Shown here piece after piece: positions 80-30,103 of a stretch of DNA of 64,000 nt. The translations under genes were made by a program, and so were the position numbers. Source of the stretch: a virus (taxonomy: Duplodnaviria; Heunggongvirae; Uroviricota; Caudoviricetes). The stretch is from positions 1 through 64,000 of the IMG/VR virus record IMGVR_UViG_3300002834_000024; one strand, 5' to 3'. Numbering within the stretch: position 1 is the first letter of the stretch; the number at the start of each line of letters is the position of its first letter. Below the pieces are notes generated by a model. The model ran no database searches. It saw only the letters and a list, made by a program, of their open reading frames with translations, and was not told the origin of the DNA.

Positions 80-190
80 TGTGTTTAAATTTTTAAAATT
101 AATATTATTTGTTAATGAATTTCGATACAAAAATAGTTTTTTATTTTTATCTAATTTTATTCTGGATGTTAAAATTTATGTAATATTTAA

Positions 191-514
191 TTATGCCAAT
201 AGTGCAAATATTCCTATTACAATTGCGATTGCTATTCCCCATGTAATTATTTGGGTAATCCATTTACACGCTTTATCAGAGGCAAATCCCCAAATTCCTA
301 ATACACCCAGAATAATCCCTAAAAATATCATACCACAGAAAAAGAGGATTATTCCACCAATTATTAATACAACCAGTAAGAATACATCCCACATGTCTTC
401 TAAACTATCCCAACCTTCCTTTGAGTTGTTTACTACTACGTCCCCAAAACGGAACCAATCTTTTCCACTTCCACCAAAAACCATGTCTGGTAAATTATTC
501 TTGCTCATAGTCAT
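191..514 (-). CDS. small integral membrane protein (2-3 predicted TM helices)
   Basis: 107-aa ORF with long hydrophobic stretches (LLVVLIIGGIILFFCGMIFLGIILGVLGIWGF, WGIAIAIVIGIFALLA). Promoter element 551-598 points at it. The overlapping plus-strand ORF 81-548 translates to low-complexity junk. Confidence 0.55.
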   Translation of the reverse strand: MTMSKNNLPDMVFGGSGKDWFRFGDVVVNNSKEGWDSLEDMWDVFLLVVLIIGGIILFFCGMIFLGIILGVLGIWGFASDKACKWITQIITWGIAIAIVIGIFALLA

Positions 515-644
515 TTATTTTTATTTGTTTATAAATCATTTTATCTGATACAAAAATACAGATAAAATTAGATAAGATAAAGTTTCTGGATGTTAAAATA
601 TTTTTTTTTTGTATTTATCATATATTGAAATATCATTTTATTAT

Positions 645-3600
645 ATGACATTTGACGAATTACTTGATAAATTAACACCAGAAATAGAACTTTTAATTGA
701 TCAATCAAGAATACAAAACGAAATTCTTGTTGATCTTAATGCAGCCACCACTGAATTATTAGAAAAATATAAAGAAAGTGATGGGTTGATTGAACAAATT
801 ACTCTTTTGAAAGATAAATTAGTTGAAACAACTCAAAGTTTAACTGACTTAAATACCCCAATTACAAGTTTTTCCGATGCTTTAAAACAGGGGAAAACAG
901 ACATGGATGATTCTATGAGTAAATTAACATCCATGACTAAAAGTACAACCCAAAATTTTGGAAAATTTATTGGCGTTGCTGTTGCTGGTACAAATAAATT
1001 CAAAGAGTTAGCAACAGCAGCTGGAAAAGCTGGTACTGCACAAGATGATGCTGCTAAATCACTTAAAAAAGTGGGAGATGCTTCTGATAATTTAAAAGGT
1101 CGTCTTGATAGTAATCCTGGTGGTACAGGTGGTACTGGTAGTGGTAGACCAGGTTCTTCTGGTGCAGCCAAAGGTGGTAAATTACAAAAAATTGGTCAAA
1201 TTGCAATAGATGTTGTTAAAGGCGGATGGGAACAAATGACAAAACTTGAAGAAGCATTTAGACCATTGAATAGACAAATGGGATTGAGTGCTGAAAATCA
1301 AGTTAAGTTTATGGGGGCAATGAATAAAGTTGCCATTGATACAACAAGAAAATTTGGTATAGCAGCAAAAGATCTTGGTGAAATTCAAGGTAAATTATTT
1401 GCTGAAACTGGTAGGATACAAGTAATGTCAGCAAAACAAGCTGAAAAAGTTGCTGGAATTGCCAAAGTAATGGGTAATCAAGCTGGCGCACAATTTGTTG
1501 CAGATATGGATAAAATTGGAGTATCCACAGATAAGGCAGCAAAAAGTTGGAGCGAGATAAGGTCTATTGCTGGTAAAGCTGGCGTTGATATGGTTAAAGC
1601 AACCAGTCTAGTTCAATCAAATATACAAAAAGCACAATCATACGCATTTAAAGATGGTGTTAATTCGTTAGCACAAATGGCAACAAAATCTTTGCAAATG
1701 AGAATGAATATGGAACAAGTATTCAAATTTTCAGAAGCAAACAGAAGTGTTGAGGGGGCTGTTACACAGGCTGCTCAAACACAAGTATTGGGAGGCGCAT
1801 TTTCATCTTTTGCTAATCCATTAGAAAATTTATATAATTCTTTGTATGATCAAGAAGCATCACAAGATAGATTATTAGGTCTTGGGTCGGATGTGATGAC
1901 ATTTGATAAAAAGTCAGGAACAATGAAATATAAATCTGCTGCTGATCAATTAAGAGCTGAAGCATTTGCTAAAAGTTCAGGGTTAGATATTGGTGAACTT
2001 CAAAGTGGTTGGACAAGAGCAGGAATAGGTCAACAAATAGATAAAGAATTGGGGACTCAATTTGGTGTTGGATTAGATAAAGATCAAAGAGATTTGGCAA
2101 AATCACAAGCTAGTTGGAATGAAGATATGAAGGCTTGGACTGTATCTGTTAGAGAAAAGGATAGTGAGGGGAATTATACTTATAAAGATAAAGAATTAGA
2201 TCAATTAACATCACAAGACCTTGCATCAATACAGGCTGACGATAGTCAAAATATAGATGAAATTGCGAGAACAACAATGACCATTAAAGATAAACTTGTT
2301 GCGATTCTTGATGCTGCAAAAACTGCATTTGGTGGGTGGGTTTTTAAAAATCTAGGCCCATTTCTTGCAGATATGGTTGAAAAAATAGGTGGCTTTTTTG
2401 GGGGATTATCAACTGGAATGAAAGCACTTGTTGGGGGTGCTGCTGTTGCTGCTGGACCCATTGGAAGTTTAGCATTAGGCGGTGTAAAAAAACTAGGTAA
2501 AAATGCCTTAGGCGCATTTGGAAAAGTCGCAAAATTAGCAAAAGTTGACAAAGTAGCTGGATTAGGTAGAGGAACAATAATGAAAAATGCTGGTAAAAAT
2601 ATGTTGAAATTAGGTAAAGGTAGTGGTATTGCAGCTGGTCTTATTTCAGCAGGAGTTGAAGGTTTTGATCAATGGCAAGCTGGTAACTTTAAGAAAAGTA
2701 GTGGAAATCAAGGAAAAGCAATTGGTTCAACTGCTGGCGCTGGTGTTGGTGGCGGTCTTGGCGCATGGGGTGGAGCTGCTGCTGGAGCAGCAATTGGTAG
2801 TGTTGTACCTGGCATTGGAACTGCAATTGGAGGCGTTTTAGGTGCTATTGTTGGTGGTCTTGCTGGAAGTAAATTTGGTAAAAACATTGGTAATGCCATT
2901 GGTAAATACTTTGATGAAGGTGGGGGAAAAGCAATTAAAGAAGCATCAAAAAAAGTTTGGGGTGCTGTTTCTTCAACTGCATCAAATGTTTGGGGGGCAA
3001 TGAAAGAAAAGGGTGGTCAAATTGGATCAGCTGTTGGAAAAATATGGGATAATTTAAGTGTTAAAGGTAAACAACTTGGCGGTGGATTTTCAGCATTATT
3101 TAAAGGCGATTTCAAGGGTGCTGCTACCAATTTTACATTATTAACAAAAAATGTAATTGGGGATGTAGTTAATATTAGTAAAAAATTTGGTGAAATTGGA
3201 AAAGAATTTGGTGGATGGATTTCAGATGCTTTTGGAAAAATAACAAGTAAAGAATGGTGGGGTGAAAAGTTGAGTAATATATGGGAAAGTATTACTGGGT
3301 TCTTCGGACCTATTGGAGATTTTTTCAAAGAAAAGTTTGGTGCAATTGGTGATTGGTTCACGGAGAAATTTGGTGCAATTGGTGATTGGTTCACAACTGC
3401 TTTTTCAAATATAACATCAGCTGAATGGTGGGGTGAACGAATTTCAAATATAAAAGATGCTATTATAGGCAAATTTACATCAATTGTTGATTGGGTTAGT
3501 GAAAATTTAAGTCCAAGTGCAATATTTAATAAGGCTAAAAATGCTGTTGTTGGAGTTGCTAACAAGGTAATTGGTAAAGGTAAAGAAATACTCTCTGATG

Positions 3601-4019
3601 TACAAAGTGGTGTTTCAGAAGCACAAACTATGGATGCTAAAACTGATTATGTTAGCGATATGATTAAAACCCCACAGGGAAAAATAATGACAGATCCAAA
3701 TGATGTTATTATGGCTGTTAAACCTGGTGGTTCACTTTCAACTTTCTTTTCAAATAGTGTTTTACCAAATCCATCTGTTGGTGGTGGAGGATCGGGTGGT
3801 AACATTCAAATACCCCCAATAACAATTAACATATCAGGTTCACTAAGATTAGATGGTGCAAGTGAAACAATAAATCTTAATTCACTGGCAACCAACCGAC
3901 AATTTGTTGGGGCAATAACACAAGCTGTTGCTGATGGTATCAATAGAAATATGAACAGTGGAAGAATGAATAACAGTCAAGGACAATCATTTGGAAATTT
4001 CAATCGTGGAATGTTTTAA
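645..4019 (+). CDS. tail tape-measure-like giant protein (Gly-rich, coiled-coil N-terminus)
   Basis: 1136-aa ORF (track start 609; the more likely start is ATG 645, downstream of the TATTTAT motif at 612-618). N-terminal coiled-coil-like region, long Gly/Ala-rich hydrophobic segments (GGAAVAAGPIGSLALGG..., GAGVGGGLGAWGGAAAGAAIGSVVPGIGTAIGGVLGAIVGG) and amphipathic FGxIG repeats typical of tape-measure/ejection proteins. Immediately followed by a lysozyme gene. Confidence 0.45.
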   Translation: MTFDELLDKLTPEIELLIDQSRIQNEILVDLNAATTELLEKYKESDGLIEQITLLKDKLVETTQSLTDLNTPITSFSDALKQGKTDMDDSMSKLTSMTKSTTQNFGKFIGVAVAGTNKFKELATAAGKAGTAQDDAAKSLKKVGDASDNLKGRLDSNPGGTGGTGSGRPGSSGAAKGGKLQKIGQIAIDVVKGGWEQMTKLEEAFRPLNRQMGLSAENQVKFMGAMNKVAIDTTRKFGIAAKDLGEIQGKLFAETGRIQVMSAKQAEKVAGIAKVMGNQAGAQFVADMDKIGVSTDKAAKSWSEIRSIAGKAGVDMVKATSLVQSNIQKAQSYAFKDGVNSLAQMATKSLQMRMNMEQVFKFSEANRSVEGAVTQAAQTQVLGGAFSSFANPLENLYNSLYDQEASQDRLLGLGSDVMTFDKKSGTMKYKSAADQLRAEAFAKSSGLDIGELQSGWTRAGIGQQIDKELGTQFGVGLDKDQRDLAKSQASWNEDMKAWTVSVREKDSEGNYTYKDKELDQLTSQDLASIQADDSQNIDEIARTTMTIKDKLVAILDAAKTAFGGWVFKNLGPFLADMVEKIGGFFGGLSTGMKALVGGAAVAAGPIGSLALGGVKKLGKNALGAFGKVAKLAKVDKVAGLGRGTIMKNAGKNMLKLGKGSGIAAGLISAGVEGFDQWQAGNFKKSSGNQGKAIGSTAGAGVGGGLGAWGGAAAGAAIGSVVPGIGTAIGGVLGAIVGGLAGSKFGKNIGNAIGKYFDEGGGKAIKEASKKVWGAVSSTASNVWGAMKEKGGQIGSAVGKIWDNLSVKGKQLGGGFSALFKGDFKGAATNFTLLTKNVIGDVVNISKKFGEIGKEFGGWISDAFGKITSKEWWGEKLSNIWESITGFFGPIGDFFKEKFGAIGDWFTEKFGAIGDWFTTAFSNITSAEWWGERISNIKDAIIGKFTSIVDWVSENLSPSAIFNKAKNAVVGVANKVIGKGKEILSDVQSGVSEAQTMDAKTDYVSDMIKTPQGKIMTDPNDVIMAVKPGGSLSTFFSNSVLPNPSVGGGGSGGNIQIPPITINISGSLRLDGASETINLNSLATNRQFVGAITQAVADGINRNMNSGRMNNSQGQSFGNFNRGMF
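3336..3394 (+). repeat. perfect 26-nt direct repeat with 33-nt period (encodes KFGAIGDWFTE x2)
   Basis: tttggtgcaattggtgattggttcac occurs at 3336-3361 and 3369-3394. Confidence 0.9.
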
Positions 4020-4030
4020 TATAAAATAAT

Positions 4031-4834
4031 ATGACAGAATCAGAAAAATCAGAAATTATAAACAAAACACTTAAACATGAGGGTGGTTTTGGAATAGATA
4101 ATAATGGTGCGTGGGTTTATTGTGGAATAAATTCAAATTCAAATCCAACTTGGCCAGGTTGGGATAGAGTTTCACAATTAGTTAATCACTCAAAATTCAA
4201 TCATTTCTCACCAAAATCAGAAGGCGTTTATAATAAAATTTGGGATGATCCAAGATTAAAACAACAAGTATCCGATTTAGCATCAGGTAGTTATTATTGG
4301 AATGGTAATAGTTTTGAAGATTACAACGATAAACGTGTTGCATCTAACTTGTTTGATCAGAGATATGCTGGTGGTATGGAAACAGTTATGAATTGTGCAT
4401 TTGGTACAACTAATAAAAAACAGGCTGCCCAAGTTGCAAACAGTATGGGCGAAAGAGCATTGCCGAAAGTTATTGAATGTAGAGAACAATATGTAAATAG
4501 TATAAACTTTGGGCAACAAACGCCTGATGGAGATCCGCCTGGTTGTTCACAGCCTGGTAGTGGTTGTAAATGTAAAACACGAACAAATAGTAGTGGTAAG
4601 ACCTACACAGAATATGGGTGGAACTTTTACAGAAAAGCCCACTTAAAAAGAATTAAAGATCACAATGCTGATTGGATGGCTGGCGGATCATCTTCATATT
4701 ATCCAAATACAGGAAATAATAATGAAGAATTTCACAGTAATACTATTGTGGTTGATAAATTCCTAGACCCAAGAGAAGGAAATTGGTTTTTAGAACATTT
4801 AGGAAAAGAAGATTCTATATTTGATGCAAATTAA
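4031..4834 (+). CDS. GH108-family lysozyme (N-acetylmuramidase-like), likely tail-associated or endolysin
   Basis: N-terminus TLKHEGGFGIDNNGAW..YCGINSNSNPTWPGW matches the GH108 EGG(Y/F) catalytic region. C-terminal Cys/Gly-rich region. Directly downstream of the tape-measure-like gene. Confidence 0.55.
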   Translation: MTESEKSEIINKTLKHEGGFGIDNNGAWVYCGINSNSNPTWPGWDRVSQLVNHSKFNHFSPKSEGVYNKIWDDPRLKQQVSDLASGSYYWNGNSFEDYNDKRVASNLFDQRYAGGMETVMNCAFGTTNKKQAAQVANSMGERALPKVIECREQYVNSINFGQQTPDGDPPGCSQPGSGCKCKTRTNSSGKTYTEYGWNFYRKAHLKRIKDHNADWMAGGSSSYYPNTGNNNEEFHSNTIVVDKFLDPREGNWFLEHLGKEDSIFDAN

Positions 4835-4850
4835 AGAATTATTTCTTTAA
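4831..4850. terminator. bidirectional hairpin terminator between convergent genes
   Basis: TTAAAGAA TTAT TTCTTTAA, a perfect 8-bp stem with 4-nt loop, overlaps the stop codons of 4031-4834 (+) and 4839-5306 (-). Confidence 0.5.
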
Positions 4851-5306: not shown

Positions 5307-5424
5307 ACTTTAATATTTTTTTTTAAAAATAAATAGAATAGTTAAAAAAAAATGAACTACTTATATGATGAGGTTTCCCCCTATGTTTTAAAATTATTTG
5401 AATAAAATAAACAATTCCCAATGA

Positions 5425-6618
5425 TTAAGACATCATCAGGAATTGTTTTCTCATATCAATAAGAATATCATTAAAGAAGTCAATATCAACTTGATCTGGT
5501 AATGAACAGGTATTGATATTTTGTTCAATATAAGATTTCTTTTCTTCAGCAATCTTCATTATTTTGTCATAATCCCATTCACCTTTTTTTACGGATAAGA
5601 TGAAATCTCTGTCAATATCAGTTCTATCAATGAGGAAACCTTTACCATTAACAAGTTCTTCACCCATTGTTAAAAGCCGAATACAATGTGAAATGTTTTT
5701 GACATCATAATTTCGTTGGCTTTCAATATTGATTTTAAATCTTTCAGGATTTCTTTTTTTCTTCCAGTCTTGGTAATTTTTATAATCAACACAAAATTTT
5801 GAGTATCCTGATTTGTTATATGTCATATAACAAATTGGTAAAATCTCTTTTTCAACAGAGGATAATCTCACTTCATTACTATCATCACCAACAATACCAC
5901 GATAATTAGTTTCATTGATTGTATTAATAACTATGTTTAATGGTTCTAAATTTAAGAAAGAACATGCCATTCGATAAGAATTATTAATTAATTTTAATAA
6001 AATATATTCTTCTTCATCTGTGTTAATTTCAAAAAACTTTTCATTGTAATGTTTTTTGAAATCATAATATAAACCATAAACATCGTGCATATGTGGAATA
6101 TTTACCAACCCACAGTATTCTTGATATAAACTATTTTGTTTAAGATAATCTTTAATGGGTATTGAACCCTGTTCTTTGAATGTATAACAAAAGTCAAGAA
6201 CATCTTTCTTTTCTTCAATTGGATTAACAATTGCTTTATTTAACCCACGTGCCTTTTGAATTTGAGAATGGGCATATTGGGTTAATATCTTTGCTAATTC
6301 TTTTGTCAAAAATTTATTTCCATTTTCAAAAATAGGGGTTAAAATTTTGTGAGGCTTGGTTAACATTTTATCCTTCGGAACAAAAACACCCTCGATCATA
6401 TTTGGATTTCCTTTAATAAGGAGTTCAACCCATCTACCAAGTTCGTAAAACACAACATCATTACCATCAACATTCATTTGTTCTTGATAATTTTGTCTTA
6501 ATCCAAGAATATCATTGATATTTTGGACAAAAACACCAGATTTATCAAGATCACTATTTTCTGTTGCTAATCCATACAGTTGTGAACCACGAATATATTC
6601 ATAAATTATATTTTGCAT
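5425..6618 (-). CDS. Pol-beta superfamily nucleotidyltransferase (RlaP/PF10127-like predicted NTase)
   Basis: N-terminal motif IRGSQLYGLATENSDLDKSGVFV is the hG[GS]x(9-13)Dh[DE]h nucleotidyltransferase signature. The size (397 aa) and following helical region resemble the RNA-repair-associated NTase family. Family assignment is from memory of the motif style, not a search. Confidence 0.5.
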   Translation of the reverse strand: MQNIIYEYIRGSQLYGLATENSDLDKSGVFVQNINDILGLRQNYQEQMNVDGNDVVFYELGRWVELLIKGNPNMIEGVFVPKDKMLTKPHKILTPIFENGNKFLTKELAKILTQYAHSQIQKARGLNKAIVNPIEEKKDVLDFCYTFKEQGSIPIKDYLKQNSLYQEYCGLVNIPHMHDVYGLYYDFKKHYNEKFFEINTDEEEYILLKLINNSYRMACSFLNLEPLNIVINTINETNYRGIVGDDSNEVRLSSVEKEILPICYMTYNKSGYSKFCVDYKNYQDWKKKRNPERFKINIESQRNYDVKNISHCIRLLTMGEELVNGKGFLIDRTDIDRDFILSVKKGEWDYDKIMKIAEEKKSYIEQNINTCSLPDQVDIDFFNDILIDMRKQFLMMS

Positions 6619-6620
6619 AA

Positions 6621-6881
6621 TTAAACTATTTCACTTACTATTTGTTTAAATAATTCTGGATTATTACGGCAATCAATACGACCACCAATAACATGTTCAT
6701 GTGATGTATATTCAGTTAGAAACATATTGTTAAATGTGCCATATGCACCACACTTACTTGTAAATAAATTATCACCTTTGTTATCATAAACTGGAGATAA
6801 TCTGTAACCATTTTGTTCTAACCATTCAATCATTTCGGTAGTATTCTCAATGATTGCTGCTTGTTTGTAAAGATATTCCAT
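6621..6881 (-). CDS. hypothetical protein
   Basis: 86-aa ORF tightly abutting the upstream gene (3-nt gap). Promoter element 6906-6952 upstream. Confidence 0.45.
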   Translation of the reverse strand: MEYLYKQAAIIENTTEMIEWLEQNGYRLSPVYDNKGDNLFTSKCGAYGTFNNMFLTEYTSHEHVIGGRIDCRNNPELFKQIVSEIV

Positions 6882-6905
6882 TTTTTTAATTATATAAATT
6901 TATTA

Positions 6906-6952
6906 CAAAAGTATTAAATCTTATATAATATTTAATGTACTGGATGTTAAAA
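6906..6952 (-). promoter_or_regulatory. conserved bipartite minus-strand promoter element (TTTTAACATCCAG-N26-TAcTTTTG)
   Basis: Plus strand shows CAAAAGTA at 6906-6913 and CTGGATGTTAAAA at 6940-6952. Same 26-bp spacing as five other copies. About 27 nt upstream of the ATG of 6621-6881. Confidence 0.6.
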
Positions 6953-7294
6953 TGGGATATTTTTTTCTAATTGTTTTTTAAATTCTTCGATGGTTTCAAT
7001 ACCAAAGTTTTTTCGTTCTTGGTCTGTTAAATCTCTTATATCCCCACAAACTTTACATTCCATTTTTGAAAAACATCTTGGTTGAGTAGATGTTAGATAA
7101 TATTCATGTAAACCATCTTCATTTAAACAGTCTGCTTTTTCAACATTATAATCAAAACTTATTTGTGTTGTATATACAAACATTTTTTCACATCCACAAC
7201 ATTGTTGTGAATATATTTCATCTTCTTCATAACCATAACCATCATCATGGTTTATGTATTGTTCTTTTCCGCAATAGGGGCAATTTATACTCAT
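6947..7294 (-). CDS. Cys-rich zinc-ribbon protein
   Basis: 115-aa ORF with CPYCG...CCGCE...CKVCG cysteine pairs. Stop codon lies inside the promoter-element 13-mer. Confidence 0.5.
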   Translation of the reverse strand: MSINCPYCGKEQYINHDDGYGYEEDEIYSQQCCGCEKMFVYTTQISFDYNVEKADCLNEDGLHEYYLTSTQPRCFSKMECKVCGDIRDLTDQERKNFGIETIEEFKKQLEKNIPF

Positions 7295-7626: not shown

Positions 7627-7707
7627 AGTCCCATTTGGTATAAATTCATCAGCATATACACCAAGACCATAAGCATTTTATTTTACCTTATGTTTAATTA
7701 ATAACAT

Positions 7708-8229: not shown

Positions 8230-8275
8230 TATTATTTATTGTTGTAAATATATTTAATTTTTTATTCAAAGTAAA

Positions 8276-8512: not shown

Positions 8513-8514
8513 GA

Positions 8515-10362: not shown

Positions 10363-10365
10363 ACT

Positions 10366-15206: not shown

Positions 15207-16310
15207 TTACGCTGCAAGTGCATAGATACTATCGTGTGTCTTTTGCATTTTTTTGTACACATCCCCATCCATAATGGCGTTAAACTTATATTCATCACCT
15301 TTGTTGTAACTTCTGTGGTTTTGGAAGTATGTACTCATTCCATTGAGTACCCAAAGTGCGCTTCCCCTCCATCTTTCCTGACCAATCCCATTATCCAATG
15401 TATTCAATACATTTTCAATTGTGTTTCTTGATCTGGTAGAGATGTCAATGTGATTAAAATTGTAGTTTTCAAGTTGTAATTCTCTTACTTGGGATTGTTC
15501 AAGGAATACATCAGCAACAATTTTCTTAACGATATTGTCATCAACCTTTACATCAGCAAATCTGTTTAAAGTATCCTGTAAATTCTGAACATAAATTTTA
15601 TGCCCCCTTAAAATACTCAAAGCCATTTCTAGGTTTTCCTTTTGTTTCAGATTTACTTTTGAGTGAACGTTTTTGGTGTGTTTGAAGTACACCCGATTTT
15701 TACCCTCATGTAATGCCATGTTGAGAGTGTTATTACAAACTACACGTGTGGTACAGAATTGAGCGATTACTGCGCCAGTTCCATCATGGCTGTTAGTGAA
15801 AAGAATGTAATCTTCAATCACATCATCACTGTCTTTGATTTTGAATGGTTCGTTAAACCTTGCGGTTACAAACATTCTTTCGCCACCCCCAAGTACACCA
15901 GCTGTTTCAATAAAGGGGGCATCAAACTGTCCCGACACTCCGCTTAGAATGTCTTGTACAAACTCAAAGCCTTGCAAGTTTTGTACAACTTCATAACCAC
16001 TTCCAACAACACCTAAAATGTTGTCTAAATCACGTCTAACTGTACATTGATGACTTTTGATTATATCCTTTTGATTGAAAATTCTATCAAGAGGTAAACC
16101 CATTTTGATTTTTTCCAAATCTTCAGATGTGATGCGTATAAGCGCATCTTTTTCTACTTGATAATCAGCTCTACAAGCTGTTATCGCTTCATGAATGGTA
16201 ATTCTGGGATCATCAAATATAATTCCCAGTCCATGCCAAGGCTTATTTATTCTACCACCTGCTGTTACAAAACTACCTTTGTCGTCTCTCATTTCAATTT
16301 CGTGTGCCAT
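15207..16310 (-). CDS. DUF932-family (phage/plasmid-like, TIGR03299-type) protein
   Basis: N-terminus MAHEIEMRDDKGSFVTAGGRINKPWHGLG matches the characteristic MAH..E....F......pWHGLG start of DUF932 proteins. 367 aa. Confidence 0.55.
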   Translation of the reverse strand: MAHEIEMRDDKGSFVTAGGRINKPWHGLGIIFDDPRITIHEAITACRADYQVEKDALIRITSEDLEKIKMGLPLDRIFNQKDIIKSHQCTVRRDLDNILGVVGSGYEVVQNLQGFEFVQDILSGVSGQFDAPFIETAGVLGGGERMFVTARFNEPFKIKDSDDVIEDYILFTNSHDGTGAVIAQFCTTRVVCNNTLNMALHEGKNRVYFKHTKNVHSKVNLKQKENLEMALSILRGHKIYVQNLQDTLNRFADVKVDDNIVKKIVADVFLEQSQVRELQLENYNFNHIDISTRSRNTIENVLNTLDNGIGQERWRGSALWVLNGMSTYFQNHRSYNKGDEYKFNAIMDGDVYKKMQKTHDSIYALAA

Positions 16311-16355: not shown

Positions 16356-16402
16356 CAAAGATACGAATAAAATTACATAAGATTTAATTCTGGATGTTAA
16401 AA
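16356..16402 (-). promoter_or_regulatory. conserved bipartite minus-strand promoter element (TTTTAACATCCAG-N26-TAtcTTTG), with overlapping hairpin
   Basis: Plus strand shows CAAAGATA at 16356-16363 and CTGGATGTTAAAA at 16390-16402. The 13-mer is part of an inverted repeat TCTGGAT gttaaaaaaa ATCCAGA. About 45 nt upstream of the DUF932 start. Confidence 0.6.
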
Positions 16403-16464
16403 AAAATCCAGAAAAACTTTTTTTGTGAGTTTTCTGGATTTTCAGTTTATGAAAAACTTGAATG

Positions 16465-17136
16465 TTAGAAAGGCAAGTTATCAGCATTACTTCCACCCGA
16501 ATAATACTGTTGATTATTTGGCTGCTGTCCTTGTTGTGGAGTAGCCTGATATTGCGGTTGTCCTTGTGGTTGTGGCTGATACTGTGGTTGCTGGTTTCCA
16601 CCCCTTTGTTGTGTCCCACCTTGTGGTGGGACTTGTTGGTATTGTTGAGGAGGCGGAGCTTGTTGATACTGCGGTTGTCCTTGTGGTGGAGCCTGATACT
16701 GCGGTTGAGGTGCTTGTTGCCATGTCTGTTGTTGATTCGGATTATAACCTTGTGCTTGTTCGTTGTAAGTATTTTGCTTTCCATTTCCATTAGGATTGCT
16801 ACCAGTTAAGGTTAACTCCCCACCATCTGCTGAATTAACAACAACTTCGGCGACTCTTACTTTTTCCCCATTATCTCTATCCCATTCTCTATATGTAAGT
16901 TCCCCCTTAATGGCAATTTGAGAACCTTTACTAACATATTCCTTTGCGACTTTTACAACAGAACCTCTGATAACAATCTGATGCCAAGATGTTTTTTCGG
17001 GAATTGTGCGACCATCTTGTGTTGTAAATCCTCTCTTTTTGGTGGCAAGACTAAATGTAACAATTTCGCCACCATTATCAAATGTTGTAACTTTTGGGTC
17101 TTGCCCAACATGACCAATTAAAATAACTGTATTCAT
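16465..17136 (-). CDS. ssb: single-stranded DNA-binding protein (bacterial OB-fold type)
   Basis: N-terminal OB fold MNTVILIGHVGQDPKV...ETSWHQIVIRG...IKGELTYREWDRDNGEKVRVAEVVVN. Low-complexity Q/P/G-rich linker and an acidic C-terminal tip ending DNLPF (like DDDIPF). Overlapping ORFs in this region are frame artefacts of the repetitive linker. Confidence 0.85.
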   Translation of the reverse strand: MNTVILIGHVGQDPKVTTFDNGGEIVTFSLATKKRGFTTQDGRTIPEKTSWHQIVIRGSVVKVAKEYVSKGSQIAIKGELTYREWDRDNGEKVRVAEVVVNSADGGELTLTGSNPNGNGKQNTYNEQAQGYNPNQQQTWQQAPQPQYQAPPQGQPQYQQAPPPQQYQQVPPQGGTQQRGGNQQPQYQPQPQGQPQYQATPQQGQQPNNQQYYSGGSNADNLPF

Positions 17137-18235: not shown

Positions 18236-19000
18236 TTACTTACTTGTTGCCTGTTCTGTTCCAAAATATGCTTTCAGAAATACATCTTTAAATTCAGATT
18301 TATCAATATTTTCTTTTAACAAATAAATTGGCGTAAATAAAACATATTCTGTACTTTTATTAAATTCTTCTTCCAATTTTTCTCGTAAAACTTCATGTCC
18401 TGGTCTTAATGTTTTTGGATCAAGGGTTTCGATTGCTTCATTTATAACAAAACTTTGTACTCTCTTATAATCTTCTTCACTAAGTTTATCTATTAATGGT
18501 ATAAAACTACCAACACATGTTTCAAAAGATAATTCAACCCCAACTTCAATACCTCTTTTTAATATTAAGTAAATATAATAATAATCTTCATCACTTGTAC
18601 ATGCTGCAATAAGAAATTTTATATCATGTCCTGGTGTTGTTATTACATAAGTACCACCATATTTTTCTAATTCTTTTGTTATAATATCAAAATTTCCATT
18701 ACCACCAGAATTTTTTTGCATTGTTGCAACTTCGTTTTTGAGCGTATTTAATCTAAGTTGTTCAAACTCATTTATACTAATAAGTTCAAAATAATATTCG
18801 ACTGTTGTATCAACAAATTTCATAAAATAATCAACTAATTCACTAATTGAATATTCTTGATATTGTGAATATAAACAAGTATAAACTTGATATTTATCTT
18901 CATGTTTCAAAATAGCAGGAACATGAGTATTATTTTCAGTATATCTTGTTACAATAACAAGGTCATCAGTCAGTAAATTTATAGTATCAATTAAATTCAT
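18236..19000 (-). CDS. hypothetical protein
   Basis: 254-aa ORF. Confidence 0.45.
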   Translation of the reverse strand: MNLIDTINLLTDDLVIVTRYTENNTHVPAILKHEDKYQVYTCLYSQYQEYSISELVDYFMKFVDTTVEYYFELISINEFEQLRLNTLKNEVATMQKNSGGNGNFDIITKELEKYGGTYVITTPGHDIKFLIAACTSDEDYYYIYLILKRGIEVGVELSFETCVGSFIPLIDKLSEEDYKRVQSFVINEAIETLDPKTLRPGHEVLREKLEEEFNKSTEYVLFTPIYLLKENIDKSEFKDVFLKAYFGTEQATSK

Positions 19001-19812
19001 AATTCTGATGTTGTATCAAATGGTCCATCTTCACGATAAGAAAAATCATAATCATCCATATATGGTTGTTCTGGTTCGATTTTATATTTTAACCACACTC
19101 CATTTTGTTCTGGATATATTTTGTTTAAATCATATTCTGTGACTTTTGTATAACAATAAGAAGAATCATTATAATTCATTAAACGATATGTTTCTTCCCA
19201 TTGTTCTTTGGTATAACCATGTGCATCCGTAAATATATATGGTCCATCATCTTCACCTAAGTTTTCATTATCATAATCAAATGGTTCAAACTCATCTATG
19301 TATTGATTATAAATTTTATATGGAATTGATAATTTATTTAGAAAATTTCCTTGAATATCCCAATGTTCTTCTGCATGTTTTATAGCAGTATCCTTATCTA
19401 AAAAGATACCAACAGTATGTTGCCATGAATCTGACCATTCACCACCGAAATCTTCAATAATATAAACTTTATTCATCCTTTTTTCAGACAAAGATAAAAG
19501 TTGTTCATTTATTTTTGGTATGCTGGATGTTAATTTTTGAACATGTGAATTATATTTTTTAATAATTTTTGGTAATTCACTGTTTGGAATAGATTGTTTA
19601 CCTCCAAATGCTATGTATCCTGGATCTGTTGTTCGTATTACCTCGTATGGTCCACCTATATTAACATCAAAATTGTCTATTTTGTTACATTCATAAATGT
19701 AAACTGGACATTCGATTCCACTTGGTGATGCTTCATAATCAAGTAATGTTAATGTACCATCATCATTTCCCCAAACATTTGATCTCTTTGTTGATTTTAC
19801 TATAATTTCCAT
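18997..19812 (-). CDS. hypothetical protein
   Basis: 271-aa ORF with 4-nt overlap to the downstream gene. Contains an intragenic copy of the promoter element (19489-19535). Confidence 0.45.
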   Translation of the reverse strand: MEIIVKSTKRSNVWGNDDGTLTLLDYEASPSGIECPVYIYECNKIDNFDVNIGGPYEVIRTTDPGYIAFGGKQSIPNSELPKIIKKYNSHVQKLTSSIPKINEQLLSLSEKRMNKVYIIEDFGGEWSDSWQHTVGIFLDKDTAIKHAEEHWDIQGNFLNKLSIPYKIYNQYIDEFEPFDYDNENLGEDDGPYIFTDAHGYTKEQWEETYRLMNYNDSSYCYTKVTEYDLNKIYPEQNGVWLKYKIEPEQPYMDDYDFSYREDGPFDTTSEL

Positions 19813-22091: not shown

Positions 22092-22096
22092 TGTTT

Positions 22097-23152: not shown

Positions 23153-23239
23153 AATTTATGTAAGTTTAAACTGATTATGCAAATTGGTCAAGTAGTTCAT
23201 ACCTGACCAAGATGCACATACAGTATTTAGTATTTTTGT

Positions 23240-24079: not shown

Positions 24080-24092
24080 GTCTTTACAATTT

Positions 24093-24734
24093 TTAAATTA
24101 AACTTAAATTTATAATATTTTCTTCTTTTTGCTTATCTAATATTTGATTAACTTCCACTAATGAAATTGGTCTGTAATCATTACGTTCAACTGAAACATT
24201 ATATGAATTTATAGTTCCGATCTCATTGTTTTTTTCGTGGATATGACCATGTAAATGATAAACCCCATGATGTTTTCCCTCCCAGTTATATTGAGGAAAA
24301 TGGTCTAATATGTATCGCCTTTTTCCACATCTAACTTCCAAACGTTCTTTTACTGATAACAATTTTGTTACAATACTGGTTATTTGATTCGGAGTATAAT
24401 GTTTTTCAACTTTTTCAACACATTTTCTATCATCATGATTCCCAATAACAAGAATTTGAATACCATTTAGTTTATCGAGAAGTTTTATCCATTGATCAGA
24501 ACTTCCAGACCAACAAAAATCCCCTAAATTGAAAACATAATCGTTAGGTTGAACAACACTATTCCATTTTTCAATCAGTTTATCGGACATTTCTTGCATG
24601 TCAGAAAATGGTCTGTTACATAATCTGATTATATTTTTATGAAAAAAATGATGATCAGATGTAAACCAAACATTTTGTTCATCCTTTACATCAGTAAATT
24701 CGATGTATCCATATTTTGAAGATATTTTAATCAT
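24093..24734 (-). CDS. calcineurin-like metallophosphoesterase
   Basis: Metal-binding motifs in order: WFTSDHHFFH, FNLGDFC, VIGNHDD, HLHGHIHE. Confidence 0.75.
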   Translation of the reverse strand: MIKISSKYGYIEFTDVKDEQNVWFTSDHHFFHKNIIRLCNRPFSDMQEMSDKLIEKWNSVVQPNDYVFNLGDFCWSGSSDQWIKLLDKLNGIQILVIGNHDDRKCVEKVEKHYTPNQITSIVTKLLSVKERLEVRCGKRRYILDHFPQYNWEGKHHGVYHLHGHIHEKNNEIGTINSYNVSVERNDYRPISLVEVNQILDKQKEENIINLSLI

Positions 24735-24993
24735 ACCATTTTAATTTTTGACCACAATTTGGACAACGTTCTAAATTATATGCTCTTGTATAATATCCAT
24801 CATCACATGGTTCATAATCATGAAAATCTTCCAGACAAGTTGGACATTCGCTAGGACACCAATCACTTATCATTGGTTTAACTGGTGTGTTGAGTAATTC
24901 AAGTGCATCTCTAATGCCTGTTTCATAAAGGGGATAATTTCCCATGTTATTTTTCTCAACTAATTTTTCAACTATTCTATCTATAATTTCCAT
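24727..24993 (-). CDS. small Cys-rich (zinc-ribbon) protein
   Basis: 88 aa with CPSECPTC and CPNCGQK pairs. Overlaps the downstream gene by 8 nt. Confidence 0.45.
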   Translation of the reverse strand: MEIIDRIVEKLVEKNNMGNYPLYETGIRDALELLNTPVKPMISDWCPSECPTCLEDFHDYEPCDDGYYTRAYNLERCPNCGQKLKWYD

Positions 24994-25010
24994 TTTCTTT
25001 TAATTTGATA

Positions 25011-25058
25011 CAAAAGTACAAATAAAAATTGGATAAGGGAAATTACTGGATGTTAAAA
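25011..25058 (-). promoter_or_regulatory. conserved bipartite minus-strand promoter element (TTTTAACATCCAG-N27-TAcTTTTG)
   Basis: Plus strand shows CAAAAGTA at 25011-25018 and CTGGATGTTAAAA at 25046-25058. About 20 nt upstream of the ATG of 24727-24993. The stop codon of the upstream gene abuts the 13-mer. Confidence 0.6.
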
Positions 25059-26168
25059 TTATTTTGGCCCAGTATTGGTTGTTGTCCTGTTTGGGGAATA
25101 AGATTGTGTTTGATATGATGGTTGAACATAGTTTTCTTTTAAAACCAATTTATCACCAACATAATTTGCAACAACAAAAAAATCATTGTTAGGGAATAGT
25201 TTAAGATTTTCCTGATATGTTATACCTAATACTTTACAATCATTTCTAGATAAATCTATATAATTTTTATCAATGAATTTTACAACCCAACCATCATATT
25301 CAATATTCCTAATTGTATTTATTTTATAAATGATTTCTATTTCTTTTTTTCTACTTTGTAAATCATTGAAATCATTAATAAAATATTTTAAATCAGATGT
25401 TGTATTATTAGATAATTTAGATAATTCATTATATGAAAAATTAGATTTATGCCAACTCTGAACTTCAGGTACTAATACTACTTTTTGTGTACTATTTGGT
25501 AACTTTTTAATTTTTGCATGAAAAAAATGTGGGGGACTAATTTTTTCAACTTCAAGCATATAAAAGTTATCAAATTTTTCTGTTTCAACTGTTTCAGATG
25601 TAATGTAATCAAATAAATTAGATTTATATTCTGGACTATCAATCATAAATACCATAGAACCAACTTGTAATTCTTGGTTTTCAACTAAAGGGGTTACTTT
25701 TGATAGGAAACAAACTTTAGTCTCCCCAACAGAACGTGCAACACATGATTCAGTAGAATAAAATCTATTGTGTTTCCAACTTGGAGTAGTTAAAGCATAA
25801 GTAATATCATATTTAATAACATTACCGTCCCCATTATCATTATAATTGGATATTAAAGAGTTGAGATTTTTTACTGGTTCTAATTGAGGCTTGTATCTGG
25901 ATGGTAAACGCAAAACATTACCATCCCCATTAAATATTAGGGAAAATGGCTTATTGATTTCAAATATGCAAAGCACATTTTTATCTCCATTTATAATAAT
26001 ACGTGGAGATGCTTTGTCATAGTATACAGCAATTTTATTTCTATCACCATTTACAACTAAATTATCTGCCTTATCACTTGTAAATACTAATTCTTGTTTA
26101 TCACCATTTACCGTTTTACTCATTTGATTACTTTTTATTATTTTCCTCTTGTTGTTGCCACGCTTCAA
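25059..26168 (-). CDS. repeat protein with five NGD-x-N beta-strand-like repeats (possible beta-helix/polymer-forming fold)
   Basis: N-terminal region has five repeats spaced about 15 aa apart: VNGDKQELVF, VNGDRNKIAVYY, INGDKNVLCIF, FNGDGNVLRL, DNGDGNVIKY. An alternative start at an internal Met (26123) would remove the 41-nt overlap with the upstream gene. Confidence 0.4.
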   Translation of the reverse strand: MKRGNNKRKIIKSNQMSKTVNGDKQELVFTSDKADNLVVNGDRNKIAVYYDKASPRIIINGDKNVLCIFEINKPFSLIFNGDGNVLRLPSRYKPQLEPVKNLNSLISNYNDNGDGNVIKYDITYALTTPSWKHNRFYSTESCVARSVGETKVCFLSKVTPLVENQELQVGSMVFMIDSPEYKSNLFDYITSETVETEKFDNFYMLEVEKISPPHFFHAKIKKLPNSTQKVVLVPEVQSWHKSNFSYNELSKLSNNTTSDLKYFINDFNDLQSRKKEIEIIYKINTIRNIEYDGWVVKFIDKNYIDLSRNDCKVLGITYQENLKLFPNNDFFVVANYVGDKLVLKENYVQPSYQTQSYSPNRTTTNTGPK

Positions 26169-27282: not shown

Positions 27283-27312
27283 TTTTATTGTATTTTTAAA
27301 ATTTTAATAATC

Positions 27313-27699
27313 TCAATTGCAAAAATAACTACTTTTCAATTGATTTGAAAGATATTTGTTCTCAATATATTTTTTTATTATATCCCCATGACATGATAAA
27401 GGTTTACAAAAACAACCTAAATATACATTTTTACCATTAGTATATAGAGTATAGATTTCGTTAATCTTATTCTGTAACATTTGGTTTATTTCAATTTCCG
27501 AATGGAAATAATTTCGATATTTTTCAATAGAATCCTCTCTGTTTTCAACTATGAATTTGGCTAATGTATTTTTATCCTTTATACTTGTGAATGGATTTGA
27601 TAATACATTACCATATCTATCTCTACCTATATAAAAATAAGGTTCTCCACTTGGTGGAAACTCTTTTTTTATATTTATTACATATATTTCGCCACACAT
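27313..27699 (-). CDS. DUF4326-family protein
   Basis: The block FYIGRDRYGNVLSNPF matches the YIGR...NPF signature of DUF4326. Confidence 0.5.
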   Translation of the reverse strand: MCGEIYVINIKKEFPPSGEPYFYIGRDRYGNVLSNPFTSIKDKNTLAKFIVENREDSIEKYRNYFHSEIEINQMLQNKINEIYTLYTNGKNVYLGCFCKPLSCHGDIIKKYIENKYLSNQLKSSYFCN

Positions 27700-27884
27700 T
27701 ATGAATGTATTAATTTAAAATTATCACAAGCCAGATCACGAAGTCTTACATTGTAATATTCTTTACCACTTAAAATTTGATTTGAACATTCCAAACATTT
27801 GTGTCTTACTCGTTTGCCGATTGTATATCTTTTTATATGCTGGCAATCTTTACATCTTGCTGAATATAGTATTTCAATAATCAT
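27699..27884 (-). CDS. small C4 zinc-finger protein
   Basis: 61 aa with CKDCQH...CLECSNQ. Confidence 0.35.
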   Translation of the reverse strand: MIIEILYSARCKDCQHIKRYTIGKRVRHKCLECSNQILSGKEYYNVRLRDLACDNFKLIHS

Positions 27885-28075
27885 TTATATATGGTGTATT
27901 TTCTTTTATAAAAATGTAATTTTTCCATTGCATACTTTTGGGATACTTCTTTACTTCTACCCTCATAAATGGCTTGTTTAAAATGGTTCATGTAAATTCT
28001 GATGTATATTCTACAACATCCCCACAAATAACCAATAGCATATGCTATAATTCCAACTAAAATTAATTCTTTCAT
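27881..28075 (-). CDS. small membrane protein
   Basis: 64 aa. N-terminal hydrophobic helix LILVGIIAYAIGYLWG followed by a basic tail. Confidence 0.35.
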   Translation of the reverse strand: MKELILVGIIAYAIGYLWGCCRIYIRIYMNHFKQAIYEGRSKEVSQKYAMEKLHFYKRKYTIYK

Positions 28076-28093
28076 TTCTATTTCTTTTTTTTG

Positions 28094-30037
28094 TTAATAA
28101 AATCCTTCTACAGAAACAACTCTACCACCATTTAAATGAACATTTATTCTATCTGATTTTAAATCAGCTGTAATGGGACAATTAATATCATCGTATTGAG
28201 TAACCCTAATGTCATTTGTTATTCCAAGATCATTGAATATATCATAACATTCGTCAATTGTCTTATTTAACATAATTTTTTCAAAATTTTTCACTCTTTT
28301 GTCTATTGTTTCAACAACAGCACTTTGTCTTGTTTGTTGTCCTATTGACTTATCTTCTGGTTCCATATTAACTTTTTTTAATGGTAATTTAAAAATTTTT
28401 GTTGGTTCTGATGGTTCATCATATTCAACTTCTTTGTTATATATTTGTTTTAAACAGCCACTTATAACCATTAAATGGGTTACAGTTTCATTTATATCCC
28501 TACTTCCTTGTGGAGGTGGAAAATCTTTTTCACAAATTGTTGAAAATTCATTTTTTGTTCTTGTATATATTACATAAAGTAAATTCTGTTCGGCTTCAAT
28601 TTCCCAATCTTTTTTTGCTAAACCACTTGGGACAAGAGATGGACATAACAGATATACATGTTCGTGTTCTAATCCTTTTGCTTTGTGTGCTGTAATTAAA
28701 CAAATACCATTTTCATCTTGTTTAGCTAAAAATATTTTTTTTATTCTTTGAATTAGTTCAAATGTATTGTTAATATCATTTGATAATGCTTTAATGGTGT
28801 TGATAATTTCCATTTGTTGTATGATACTTCTATCAGATGTTGCATCATATACATCCAATCCCCTTTTAACCATTAGCTTTTCTCTAGCTTCAAGTAAGTT
28901 TTTGTATAATATTGGAATTAACCCATCTTTTTTCATATCAAGTGAAATGTATGGGGTATTAATTCGTTCAATAATGTCAAGTAAATTACTTCCAATATCA
29001 ATTCCTTTAATATAACATTTGATATTACGTTGAATTAATTTCAAATACAACTCAACTAATGGGGCTGTATTTCTACAAATCACCATTGAGTTAGGTTTAA
29101 TGTCTTTTATTTTGGTATCAAATGTAATTTTACCATCTGGAGCATTTTCACGTAATTGAAATTGTGGAACAAATCTTTTTGCTAATGGTAAAACAACCTG
29201 TGGGCATCGGTAATTGATTGATAAATCTAATTTGCTTGTATTTGGTATCTTCAAGATTTTTTCAAATGCCTCATTGTCCGCCCCACTGAAGCACATGATT
29301 GCCTGTTTTCGATCACCAACAGCAACAAATCTACCATCTTTTTTGAGACAACGTTGAAATAATTGTTGCATTGCAATATTTTGGTCTTGACACTCATCTA
29401 AAAGTACCCAATCATATTTTAATGAATTTAAAATGAGATTAAAATAGTTGGGTAAACATATCATATCAGTGAAATCAACAAAATCAAGATTTTCTTTACC
29501 CCATTCAATCAAATGTTTAATTATTTTCACATGATCATTTGTAATCATGTATCCATATTTATCTGCAATTTTAGCAATATCATCAGATGTTTCACATAGA
29601 TAAACTCTACATATATCTATTAATGTAAGTATGGTATCTTTGAACTCATCCCTCTCACATGTTGAAGTAAATTCAATACCTTCACACAATTCACTAAAAT
29701 TTTTCTTGAAATATGTTCGATATTTGTATTCATCAACTTCAAGCCCTGGTATGACTGTTTGATATTTAAAGTGTGTCCGTAACATTAGATAACCAAGTGA
29801 ATGACTTGTCCTAATAGTTACATTACTTTGTTTGATTTTATCTTGTAATTCATTGACTGTTGATTTATTAAATGCAAGAAACATTATTCTCTTTTTTTCT
29901 GGAATAAACTTCAACGCATGTGTTATGGAAAATGATTTGCCGGAACCTGCGATTGCTTCAACAACCGCATTTCCCTTACCATTTGTTATCCAGTCAAACA
30001 ATTTTTCCTGATATGTACTATATTTTATTTCTGACAT
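28094..30037 (-). CDS. UvrD/PcrA-like superfamily 1 DNA helicase
   Basis: Walker A VVEAIAGSGKSFSITHAL, motif Ia TSHS, motif II VLLDECQDQN, and further UvrD-like blocks. 647 aa. Confidence 0.75.
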   Translation of the reverse strand: MSEIKYSTYQEKLFDWITNGKGNAVVEAIAGSGKSFSITHALKFIPEKKRIMFLAFNKSTVNELQDKIKQSNVTIRTSHSLGYLMLRTHFKYQTVIPGLEVDEYKYRTYFKKNFSELCEGIEFTSTCERDEFKDTILTLIDICRVYLCETSDDIAKIADKYGYMITNDHVKIIKHLIEWGKENLDFVDFTDMICLPNYFNLILNSLKYDWVLLDECQDQNIAMQQLFQRCLKKDGRFVAVGDRKQAIMCFSGADNEAFEKILKIPNTSKLDLSINYRCPQVVLPLAKRFVPQFQLRENAPDGKITFDTKIKDIKPNSMVICRNTAPLVELYLKLIQRNIKCYIKGIDIGSNLLDIIERINTPYISLDMKKDGLIPILYKNLLEAREKLMVKRGLDVYDATSDRSIIQQMEIINTIKALSNDINNTFELIQRIKKIFLAKQDENGICLITAHKAKGLEHEHVYLLCPSLVPSGLAKKDWEIEAEQNLLYVIYTRTKNEFSTICEKDFPPPQGSRDINETVTHLMVISGCLKQIYNKEVEYDEPSEPTKIFKLPLKKVNMEPEDKSIGQQTRQSAVVETIDKRVKNFEKIMLNKTIDECYDIFNDLGITNDIRVTQYDDINCPITADLKSDRINVHLNGGRVVSVEGFY

Positions 30038-30056
30038 CTTATCTTATTTTTAACAA

Positions 30057-30103
30057 CAAAGGTAATTATTTTTGTGGATAATTACCTTTACTGGATGTTA
30101 AAT
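30057..30103 (-). promoter_or_regulatory. conserved bipartite minus-strand promoter element (TTTAACATCCAG-N26-TAccTTTG) with internal 9-bp hairpin
   Basis: Plus strand shows CAAAGGTA at 30057-30064 and CTGGATGTTAAAT at 30091-30103. A hairpin GGTAATTAT ttttgtgg ATAATTACC (30061-30086) lies between the boxes. About 20 nt upstream of the UvrD-like helicase ATG. The stop codon of 30098-30601 lies inside the 13-mer. Confidence 0.6.

Follow-up and report, generated by a model that had tools for sequence, protein, structure and literature searches.

A bipartite promoter-like element in the window and its left flank

We analyzed a 64,000-nucleotide window (positions 1 to 64,000) of the IMG/VR virus record IMGVR_UViG_3300002834_000024, a member of the Caudoviricetes. 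The subject of this analysis is a promoter-like element that the window carries in several copies, in which a 13-mer box is followed at a nearly constant distance by a -7 box of the form TAYYTTTG. The 13-mer CTGGATGTTAAAW occurred exactly six times in the window, always on the plus strand and at the positions given by an earlier reading of the DNA (the sequence-only reading); shuffled sequence yielded a mean of 0.02 occurrences. When the full bipartite pattern, TTAACATCCAG-N24-30-TANNTTTG read on the minus strand, was scanned against the window and against shuffled sequence, a check which that reading had proposed, seven matches were found versus 0.00 expected. All seven window occurrences of the 8-mer ACATCCAG belonged to these bipartite sites. 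TANNTTTGT alone was not enriched (41 found versus 42 expected), which indicated that the signal lay in its combination with the 13-mer.

Each of the seven copies was co-oriented with the gene downstream of it and had a TAYYTTTG box 26 to 27 bp downstream of its 13-mer. The spacer was 26 bp at 162, 6940, 16390, 19523, and 30091 and 27 bp at 586 and 25046, so the constant spacing described for six copies held for the seventh as well. No copy was found in the wrong orientation, and the only copy inside a gene (19489-19535) was fully bipartite. Two near-matches at 25846 and 25897 were rejected; they were in coding DNA and had no box at the right distance.

All seven copies are read on the minus strand. 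Copy 1 (128-174) consisted of the 13-mer TTTTAACATCCAG at 162-174, a 26-bp spacer, and the -7 box TATTTTTG at 128-135; its start is predicted near 123, and the 142-aa gene downstream, with its ATG at 79, ran off the left end of the window. Copy 2 (551-598) had its 13-mer at 586-598, a 27-bp spacer, and the box TATTTTTG at 551-558, with a predicted start near 546 and a 107-aa gene (191-514) downstream. In copy 3 (6906-6952), the 13-mer at 6940-6952 was followed by a 26-bp spacer and the box TACTTTTG at 6906-6913. The TAA of this 13-mer was the stop codon of the open reading frame (ORF) at 6947-7294, and an 86-aa gene (6621-6881) and then a nucleotidyltransferase (RlaP) gene (5425-6618) lay downstream. 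Copy 4 (16356-16402; 13-mer at 16390-16402, 26-bp spacer, box TATCTTTG at 16356-16363) preceded the DUF932 gene at 15207-16310, and the orthologous promoter was kept in the relative L139.

Copy 5 (19489-19535), which was absent from the earlier list, paired AATTAACATCCAG at 19523-19535 with the box TATCTTTG at 19489-19496 across a 26-bp spacer. It was located inside a 271-aa ORF (18997-19812, minus strand). An in-frame ATG (19476) followed the box by 12 nt, which suggests an internal promoter for a 159-aa C-terminal isoform or, alternatively, two fused genes. Copy 6 (25011-25058; 13-mer at 25046-25058, 27-bp spacer, box TACTTTTG at 25011-25018) was followed by an 88-aa gene (24727-24993) and a metallophosphatase gene on the same strand that overlapped by 4 to 8 nt. 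Band_7, MscS, and RNA-ligase genes came next on this strand, with gaps of up to 87 nt. Copy 7 (30057-30103) had ATTTAACATCCAG at 30091-30103, a 26-bp spacer, and the box TACCTTTG at 30057-30064; the TAA of its 13-mer was the stop codon of the ORF at 30098-30601, and the gene downstream encoded a UvrD-like helicase (28094-30037).

The position close upstream of an ATG that had been claimed for the six listed sites held, but the distance from box to ATG ranged from 17 to 48 nt instead of 20 to 45 nt. Similarly, only two 13-mers overlapped the stop codon of an upstream ORF (those ending at 6947 and 30098), not three; the stop at 25059 merely abutted the 13-mer of copy 6.

The copy 7 helicase had a match with 100% identity among the proteins of a 347,076-bp ENA metagenome contig, and a comparison of the flanks placed the window at approximately 281,081-345,080 of that contig (ERZ27257346:k141_3250306). 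The DNA that we read comprised the 64-kb window of this 347-kb contig, about 6 kb of left flank, and about 2 kb of right flank. The left flank (L036) contained two further exact copies, at 5543 and 1488 on the minus strand. One stood before a 48-aa gene, after which came a CCA-adding-enzyme gene, and the other stood before a 252-aa gene. In total, about 70 kb of the contig contained nine copies, each of them co-directional with the next gene.

A TAHHTTTG box was located no more than 70 nt upstream of 10 window genes. Six of these had the 13-mer (five genes that were fully in the window and the 142-aa gene that ran off its left end), and one had a canonical -33 element. The latter, at 30959-30990 on the minus strand, had the form TTTG-N20-TATTTTTG, lacked the 13-mer, and was upstream of an FKBP gene (30598-30936). 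It was the sole canonical host-type promoter found in the window, which indicated that the phage uses the standard form too.

Anatomy of the promoter family

To describe the element more fully, we used a family set of 48 non-redundant copies taken from low-GC metagenomic phage contigs and the window; some position counts are over 47 copies. The box core and the -7 pattern were imposed by the search, whereas the flanking and free positions were not. The box had the consensus (W)(W)TTTTAACATCCAG(W)A, and its invariant part, (W)TTTTAACATCC(A/G)G, spanned approximately -51 to -39. The conserved box positions that were not imposed were the W at -1/-2 of the box and the A after CCAGN. Spacers of 26 bp were found in 38 copies, and the other 10 had spacers of 27 bp. 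The spacer sequence was A/T-rich and weakly conserved, apart from a loose TTAnRTAAnWTTT pattern at about -27 to -15.

The -7 box read TA(T/C)(C/T)TTTG. Its agreement with TANNTTTG came from the construction of the search, and G was found at the free positions in 0/47 copies. The box was followed by T in 43/47 copies (+8 in the alignment), A, any base, T in 35/47, a purine in 44/47 (+12), any base, and A in 41/47 (+14). The conserved purine was therefore 4 nt past the G of the -7 box, at the expected start site. With the numbering of Baez et al. (T-12 to G-5, PMC6847099), this purine is +1 and the 13-mer occupies -51 to -39. In Flavobacterium johnsoniae, the -7 consensus is TAHHTTTG and transcription starts 4 to 5 nt past the element (PMC6847099); the family -7 box and the position of its purine fit both. 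Judged by every criterion that can be tested on sequence, the downstream half of the element is a Bacteroidota primary-sigma -7 element with its predicted start at the right distance. The claim that a -33 TTTG is absent was borne out, as TTTG was present 18 to 21 bp upstream of the -7 box in 2/48 copies and TTG in 3/48.

An ORF of at least 30 aa followed 41 of the 48 copies. Its ATG was 17 to 49 nt after the box in 39 cases and 4 and 12 nt after it in the other two, with a median of about 29 nt. The downstream ORFs had a median length of about 107 aa, and the largest was the 647-aa helicase. The leaders were A-rich and often contained AACAATTAAAA. The genes downstream included helicase, DUF932, and nucleotidyltransferase genes, a CCA-adding-enzyme operon, and many small ORFs.

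Six of the copies with no downstream ORF led into GC-richer sequence (L130 560-800, minus strand; L109 1688+; L054 6286+ and 1219-; L070 2744+; L124 1679+), and in the case of L130 560-800 this sequence resembled tRNA halves with about 130 nt inserted between them. ARAGORN and Rfam (at the gathering threshold) found no tRNA or other RNA gene after the ORF-less copies. These copies may serve small RNAs or intron-containing tRNAs. At the seventh ORF-less copy (L124 3428), the contig simply ended.

Distribution among relatives, metagenomes, and bacterial genomes

The element was also present in related phages, a search that the sequence-only reading had recommended, with its spacing fixed and its spacer sequence free to vary. 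In L026/L027, in which the helicase is 72% identical, TTTTAACATCCAG-N27-TATTTTTG was found after a terminator hairpin. In L028, in which the helicase is 59% identical, TTTAACATCCGG-N25/26-TAnnTTTG was found three times and CCAG copies were not found at all. Two of the L028 copies were in tandem upstream of a σA-like gene, and one was on the other strand before another gene; CCGG replaced CCAG at all three. This concerted change suggested a lineage-specific reader that acts in trans. In one genome pair, the promoter had moved relative to its neighbor: it was downstream of a 167-aa gene in the window and upstream of the 75%-identical homolog in L026.

One scan of JGI and ENA metagenome contigs gave many single, chance-like matches in medium- or high-GC DNA. 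It also returned phage-like contigs of low GC content (0.25 to 0.31) with multiple copies, including L054 (8 + 3 copies in 8 kb), L124 (five copies), and L129 (two copies). The 71.8-kb low-GC contig JGI24696J40584_12961718 had at least seven copies, and the densest contig (L054) had about 11 per 8 kb. The cassettes in L054 were near-identical over about 100 bp, as illustrated by the copies at 1592 and 5450. Among matches in stretches with a GC content of 0.32 or less, the spacer was 26 bp in 32/42 and the box was followed by T in 33/42. In the control matches with a GC content above 0.32, spacers of 24 to 28 bp were spread 15/13/19/23/10, and the next base was T in 28, A in 23, C in 21, and G in 8. 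In IMG/VR, the exact bipartite pattern gave 23 single matches that were chance-like, and none were multi-copy. A distant helicase relative, L024, contained ATAACATCCAA in coding DNA with no -7 box, and this candidate was rejected.

Among the matches listed for bacterial genomes, most were single, coding-like for the most part, lacked the family context, and resembled chance occurrences, with no multi-copy use. An excess of 26- to 27-bp spacers among them might be a scan artifact and was not used as evidence. An exception to the single matches was GenBank JAIRTE01, "Mycoplasmataceae bacterium Ct408_bin7", with three, one, and one copies on the low-GC contigs L164, L200, and L228, respectively; these look like phage contigs of the promoter family that were mis-binned by composition. 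In two Bacteroidales-like genomes, rpoD or a pnp-like/rpoD operon was preceded by TTTAACATCCGG-N25/28-TAnnTTTG (L074 2026-2073, also L125 and L225; L237 4538-4582), and the L074 site was within the inverted repeat CCTGGATGT…ACATCCGGG. The box was not found in the rpoD upstream regions of one Paludibacteraceae genome and one Fermentimonas genome, and the idea that it is a general host rpoD promoter element was not confirmed.

In the more distant clade L029-L032, which lacks the box, two tandem ACATCGGAWTAATATT-N-ATTTTATATTAG sequences were observed upstream of a SAM synthetase gene (L029 12219-12320). These may be that clade's own promoter motif.

Hairpins and palindromes

An inverted repeat had been noted at the copy 4 13-mer, and its presence was confirmed. 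Its best reading is a terminator-like hairpin (16403-16443, minus strand) formed by AAAATCCAGAAAA…TTTTCTGGATTTT, located downstream of the SSB gene (16465-17136) and directly upstream of the copy 4 box, with a terminal T-run that merged into the 13-mer. Its RNA fold was -14.4 kcal/mol (z -4.7), and a DNA fold of a longer stretch gave the same hairpin at -12.8 kcal/mol (z -2.6). L139 had a stronger hairpin of different sequence in the same place (z -9.6).

The hairpin reported within 30057-30103 was also real, but it proved to be a perfect 12-bp palindrome, AAAGGTAATTAT/ATAATTACCTTT, instead of a 9-bp hairpin. This palindrome, within 30057-30090, spanned the spacer and the first half of the copy 7 -7 box (DNA fold -11.2 kcal/mol, z -4.4) and was absent from the other copies, and it may be a gene-specific operator.

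Across the family, upstream folds with z below -2 were found in 7/48 copies, and the mean z was -0.6. Strong terminator-like hairpins were found at three copies (window 16403-16443, L139, and L026). With only three such hairpins and only two stop-codon overlaps, we rejected the idea that the 13-mer is a mere terminator T-run or a product of coding constraint. In relatives, many copies had extra half-sites (TTTTTTAACAT … ATGTTAAAATATGTAT) 15 to 45 nt upstream of the 13-mer, including sites in L054 (e.g., 1560-1600, 3190-3240, and 5420-5460), L070 (600-660), and L124 (2090-2140). These half-sites form weak hairpins or are possibly additional binding sites.

Source phage and likely host

The source of the window is a T4-like jumbo phage. 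Genes for a Gp23 major capsid protein and Portal_T4 were found directly to the right of the window, and a Peptidase_S77 prohead protease was encoded within it; matches to gp19 tail-tube and gp13-like proteins in the window were weak and fell below the Pfam cut-offs. A minus-strand block at about 4.8 to 36 kb contained replication, nucleotide-metabolism, and accessory genes, whose products included UvrD-like and SNF2 helicases, SSB, ribonucleotide reductase, RNA ligase, DUF932, and nucleotidyltransferases. The plus-strand block from 36 kb began with a ClpB-like ATPase gene, and its later identifiable genes were all structural.

Three features point to a probable Bacteroidales host. The nearest isolate helicases were those of Bacteroides, Chryseobacterium, and Flavobacterium phages; the A-rich leaders had no Shine-Dalgarno sequence; and the relative L028 encodes a σA paralog that shares about 52% identity with the 286-aa RpoD of Prevotella, Paludibacteraceae, and Rikenellaceae and does not differ from it in region 2.4. 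A megablast search of 25 kb against isolate phages gave no match. A σ70-type promoter scan of the window found 136 sites versus 133 expected, which was uninformative, as would be expected for such a host.

Two other features of the window were observed. The plus-strand ORF at 609-4019 (1124-1136 aa) lies between promoter copy 2 and a lysozyme-like gene (4031-4834), had a glycine-zipper match, and showed a GC skew of 0.36 and a GC content of 0.37 (over the stretch 2001-4000) that were unusually high compared to those of its neighbors. It probably encodes a tape-measure-like protein or another structural protein. In addition, a candidate late-promoter motif, (C)TATTTAT(A/T), was found 11 to 45 nt before the ATG in the sense orientation for 18 of 64 window genes, versus 7 antisense. 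These sites were mostly before plus-strand genes of the structural blocks (e.g., upstream of 12981, 13528, 14059, 41906, 42265, 50334, 52991, 60945, and 61721) and were reminiscent of the T4 late promoter TATAAATA.

Comparison with known promoter systems

Among the closest known counterparts were the PeSL and PmSL cassettes of T4-like phages (Arbiol et al. 2010, PMC2839356; Comeau et al. 2014, PMC4122927). Like them, the element is a conserved promoter cassette with many copies per T4-like genome, mostly before small non-structural ORFs; the multiplicity was of the PeSL type, with 9 copies in about 70 kb here and 11 in 8 kb in L054. Some copies had a stem-loop terminator directly upstream, some copies of the same genome were near-identical, and one promoter was relocated between close relatives. 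In the PmSL subtype, too, a box specific to the phage is combined with the host's -10 element. However, the host grammar is the Bacteroidota TAnnTTTG here and σ70 in those cassettes, and the box differs in sequence and is 26 to 27 bp upstream of the -7 element instead of at -35 or -30. Clear upstream stem-loops were found in about 7/48 copies, and the evidence of shuffling was one relocation example.

T4 middle promoters combine a MotA box with a σ70 -10 element and depend on sigma appropriation by MotA and AsiA (PMC2988021, PMC6755090). The MotA box, (a/t)(a/t)(a/t)TGCTTtA, is 12±1 bp from the -10 element and centered at -30 (PMC2988021). The element resembles these promoters in that an excellent host -10/-7 element is kept, the -35/-33 element is absent, and a short, non-palindromic phage box is present at a fixed distance. 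It also serves DNA-metabolism and other pre-replicative genes in a T4-like phage. In contrast to the T4 box, the box here (TTTTAACATCCRG) is 26 to 27 bp away, is centered at about -45, and is unrelated in sequence to the TGCTT core. MotA boxes are degenerate, whereas this box is invariant, and no MotA or AsiA homologs were found within the DNA that we read.

UP elements lie at -40 to -60 (PMC2988021). The box shares its position with UP elements and class I-II activator sites, and its strict helical phasing would suit contact with the C-terminal domain of the RNA polymerase α subunit (α-CTD) or with σ region 4. However, UP elements are A/T-rich and degenerate, whereas 5 of the 13 box positions are invariant G or C and the CATCCRG half is invariant; typical activator sites are dyads, whereas the box is asymmetric. 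Literature searches gave no match for such an upstream element of the Bacteroidota RNA polymerase, and searches on the motif or on promoters of Bacteroidetes jumbo phages returned nothing relevant.

Compared to the canonical σABfr promoter (-33 TTTG and -7 TANNTTTG; PMC6847099), the element has a matching -7 box that likewise lacks G at -10 and -9, a purine at the expected start, an A/T-rich stretch at -27 to -15, and an A-rich leader with no Shine-Dalgarno sequence. It differs from the canonical form in that the -33 TTTG is absent in 46/48 copies and an extra, invariant 13-bp box is found further upstream.

Candidate readers of the box

In the search for a reader, there were no matches to MotA_activ, MotCF, or AsiA among the window proteins that were scanned or had precomputed calls. 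A tblastn search with three phage sigma factors found no sigma homolog in this phage, and none was encoded in the window or in the about 8 kb of flanking DNA that we read (about 6 kb on the left and 2 kb on the right). The L029-L032 clade encodes a different, 231-aa sigma, and a protein search with it found nothing in this phage. When the L028 σA paralog was used as the query, the search returned host RpoD, and no protein of the 347-kb contig was among the 120 matches listed. The paralog itself is a 279-aa sigma encoded at L028 9162-10001, about 52% identical to Bacteroidales RpoD, with the two tandem CCGG-type promoters upstream of its gene. Its region 2.4 is identical to that of host RpoD, and its region 4.2 helix is almost unchanged.

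The alternative that survived best is that the sites are early promoters read by unmodified host RNA polymerase, with the 13-mer as a specific UP-like or extended upstream element. Contact would be made by the α-CTD, σA, or an abundant host factor, and no phage protein would be needed. We consider this explanation rather unlikely. The box, at -51 to -39, is in the α-CTD UP-element zone (-40 to -60, PMC2988021) and its 5' half (WWTTTTAA) is A/T-rich, but the invariant CATCC(A/G)G half is unlike an UP element. The element is also the predominant σA-type promoter locally and stands before strings of small ORFs, like T4 early promoters and PeSLs (PMC4122927). A host reader fits the occurrence of the box before the rpoD operons of L074/L125/L225 and L237, which represent two Bacteroidales-like genomes, but the other bacterial matches were single, mostly coding-like, and without family context, and the Paludibacteraceae and Fermentimonas rpoD upstream regions lacked the box. 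The CCAG-to-CCGG switch in L028 suits a lineage-specific reader better, although a host-specific factor would also fit.

A second alternative, which we judge to be improbable, is that the 13-mer is the -35 equivalent of a phage sigma factor, either a σA paralog as in L028 or one encoded outside the window. Region 2 of this sigma would read TAnnTTTG, and an altered region 4 or linker would read the box. Relatives encode sigma factors beside the helicase region, and jumbo phages with a gp23 capsid generally encode sigma factors, some of them RpoD-like (PMC7824862). However, none was encoded in the window or in the flanking DNA that we read, and the 231-aa sigma comes from the clade without the box. 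The L028 paralog has the host's region 2.4 and its gene is behind two promoter copies, so autoregulation would be possible. On the other hand, the region 4.2 recognition helix (LTRER(I/V)RQI) is common to the paralog and host RpoD, and the 26- to 27-bp gap is 6 to 8 bp beyond the region 4-region 2 geometry.

Finally, it is very unlikely that the 13-mer is a repressor or shut-off operator or mainly a recombination substrate (a PeSL-like mobile cassette) with no recruitment of RNA polymerase: dispersed, asymmetric operators are known in phages (e.g., P1 C1), and the near-identical L054 cassettes (1592 versus 5450), the promoter that moved between the window and L026, and the extra TTTTAACAT/ATGTTAAAA half-sites upstream in L054, L070, and L124 fit such a role, but a repressor site outside the core promoter needs no ±1-bp spacing with length kept while sequence drifts, and recombination alone gives no account of a 12- to 13-bp invariance across phages with helicases that are 59 to 72% identical. 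This view is partly compatible with a promoter, since shuffling and promoter function are not mutually exclusive.

A putative phage promoter class

On balance, we favor the interpretation that the element is a genuine phage promoter class, in which a σA-type -7 element is combined with a clade-specific box at -51 to -39 that replaces the -33 TTTG. The sequence-only reading had also proposed a distinct promoter class, and the specificity of the element, its orientation, and its conservation in relatives supported that proposal. What we observed directly is the anatomy of the sequence, the number and orientation of the copies, the constraint on spacing, and the conservation among relatives. A box that stays at one helical phase while the spacer drifts is the signature of a protein-RNA polymerase contact and not of simple repeat ancestry.

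Several points weigh against this interpretation. Pfam and PHROG scans or precomputed Pfam calls, which covered nearly all of the approximately 64 window ORFs, gave no sigma factor, MotA, AsiA, or helix-turn-helix regulator. The -33 element is weak in host promoters of F. johnsoniae (PMC6847099), and a missing -33 element is thus not in itself unusual. The fixed spacing could come in part from common descent of duplicated cassettes, and a box in the UP-element zone may be read directly by host RNA polymerase. The box was absent from the more distant L029-L032 (helicase 51 to 52% identical), which indicated that it is clade-restricted. In addition, the phage is uncultured, and its promoters are predicted from sequence.

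For the promoter class that we favor, the predicted activity, start site, temporal class, and reader acting in trans can be placed in a simple scheme. The cassette would be about 47 bp long and extended by a conserved A-rich leader, and transcription would start at the conserved purine 4 nt after the G of TAYYTTTG (T-12 to G-5). The box would be a docking site for a sequence-specific protein that touches RNA polymerase on one helix face and compensates for the absent -33 contact. This reader would probably be encoded or delivered by the phage and would recruit the host σA holoenzyme; in some relatives, the recruited holoenzyme may carry the phage σA paralog. We infer some dependence on an activator or phage sigma, and the outcome would be a phage-owned promoter class for pre-replicative genes.

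A more specific proposal, which we offer as a tentative and somewhat doubtful possibility, is that an undescribed phage-encoded or virion-delivered factor unrelated to MotA and AsiA re-programs the σABfr holoenzyme from the -45 site and that the CCAG/CCGG box co-evolves with this reader. If true, this would be an independent invention of sigma/RNA polymerase appropriation in T4-like jumbo phages of Bacteroidales.

The class appears to be new as a variant: the pairing of a phage-specific box with a host -7 element is known in kind, but it would be new for this host phylum. To our knowledge, promoter recognition in Bacteroidota does not follow the E. coli paradigm, and its determinants upstream of -33 are poorly mapped; we also know of no account of how large lytic Bacteroidota phages schedule transcription. 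The family provides more than 50 aligned natural copies of a single promoter class in which the upstream box does not vary and the spacing is strictly kept, and the identity of the factor that reads -45 in Bacteroidota becomes a directly testable question. For annotation, the motif is a marker of pre-replicative transcription units in the genomes of uncultured jumbo phages. As a tool, the cassette could be a source of orthogonal promoters that depend on a factor, for use in engineering Bacteroides and related bacteria.

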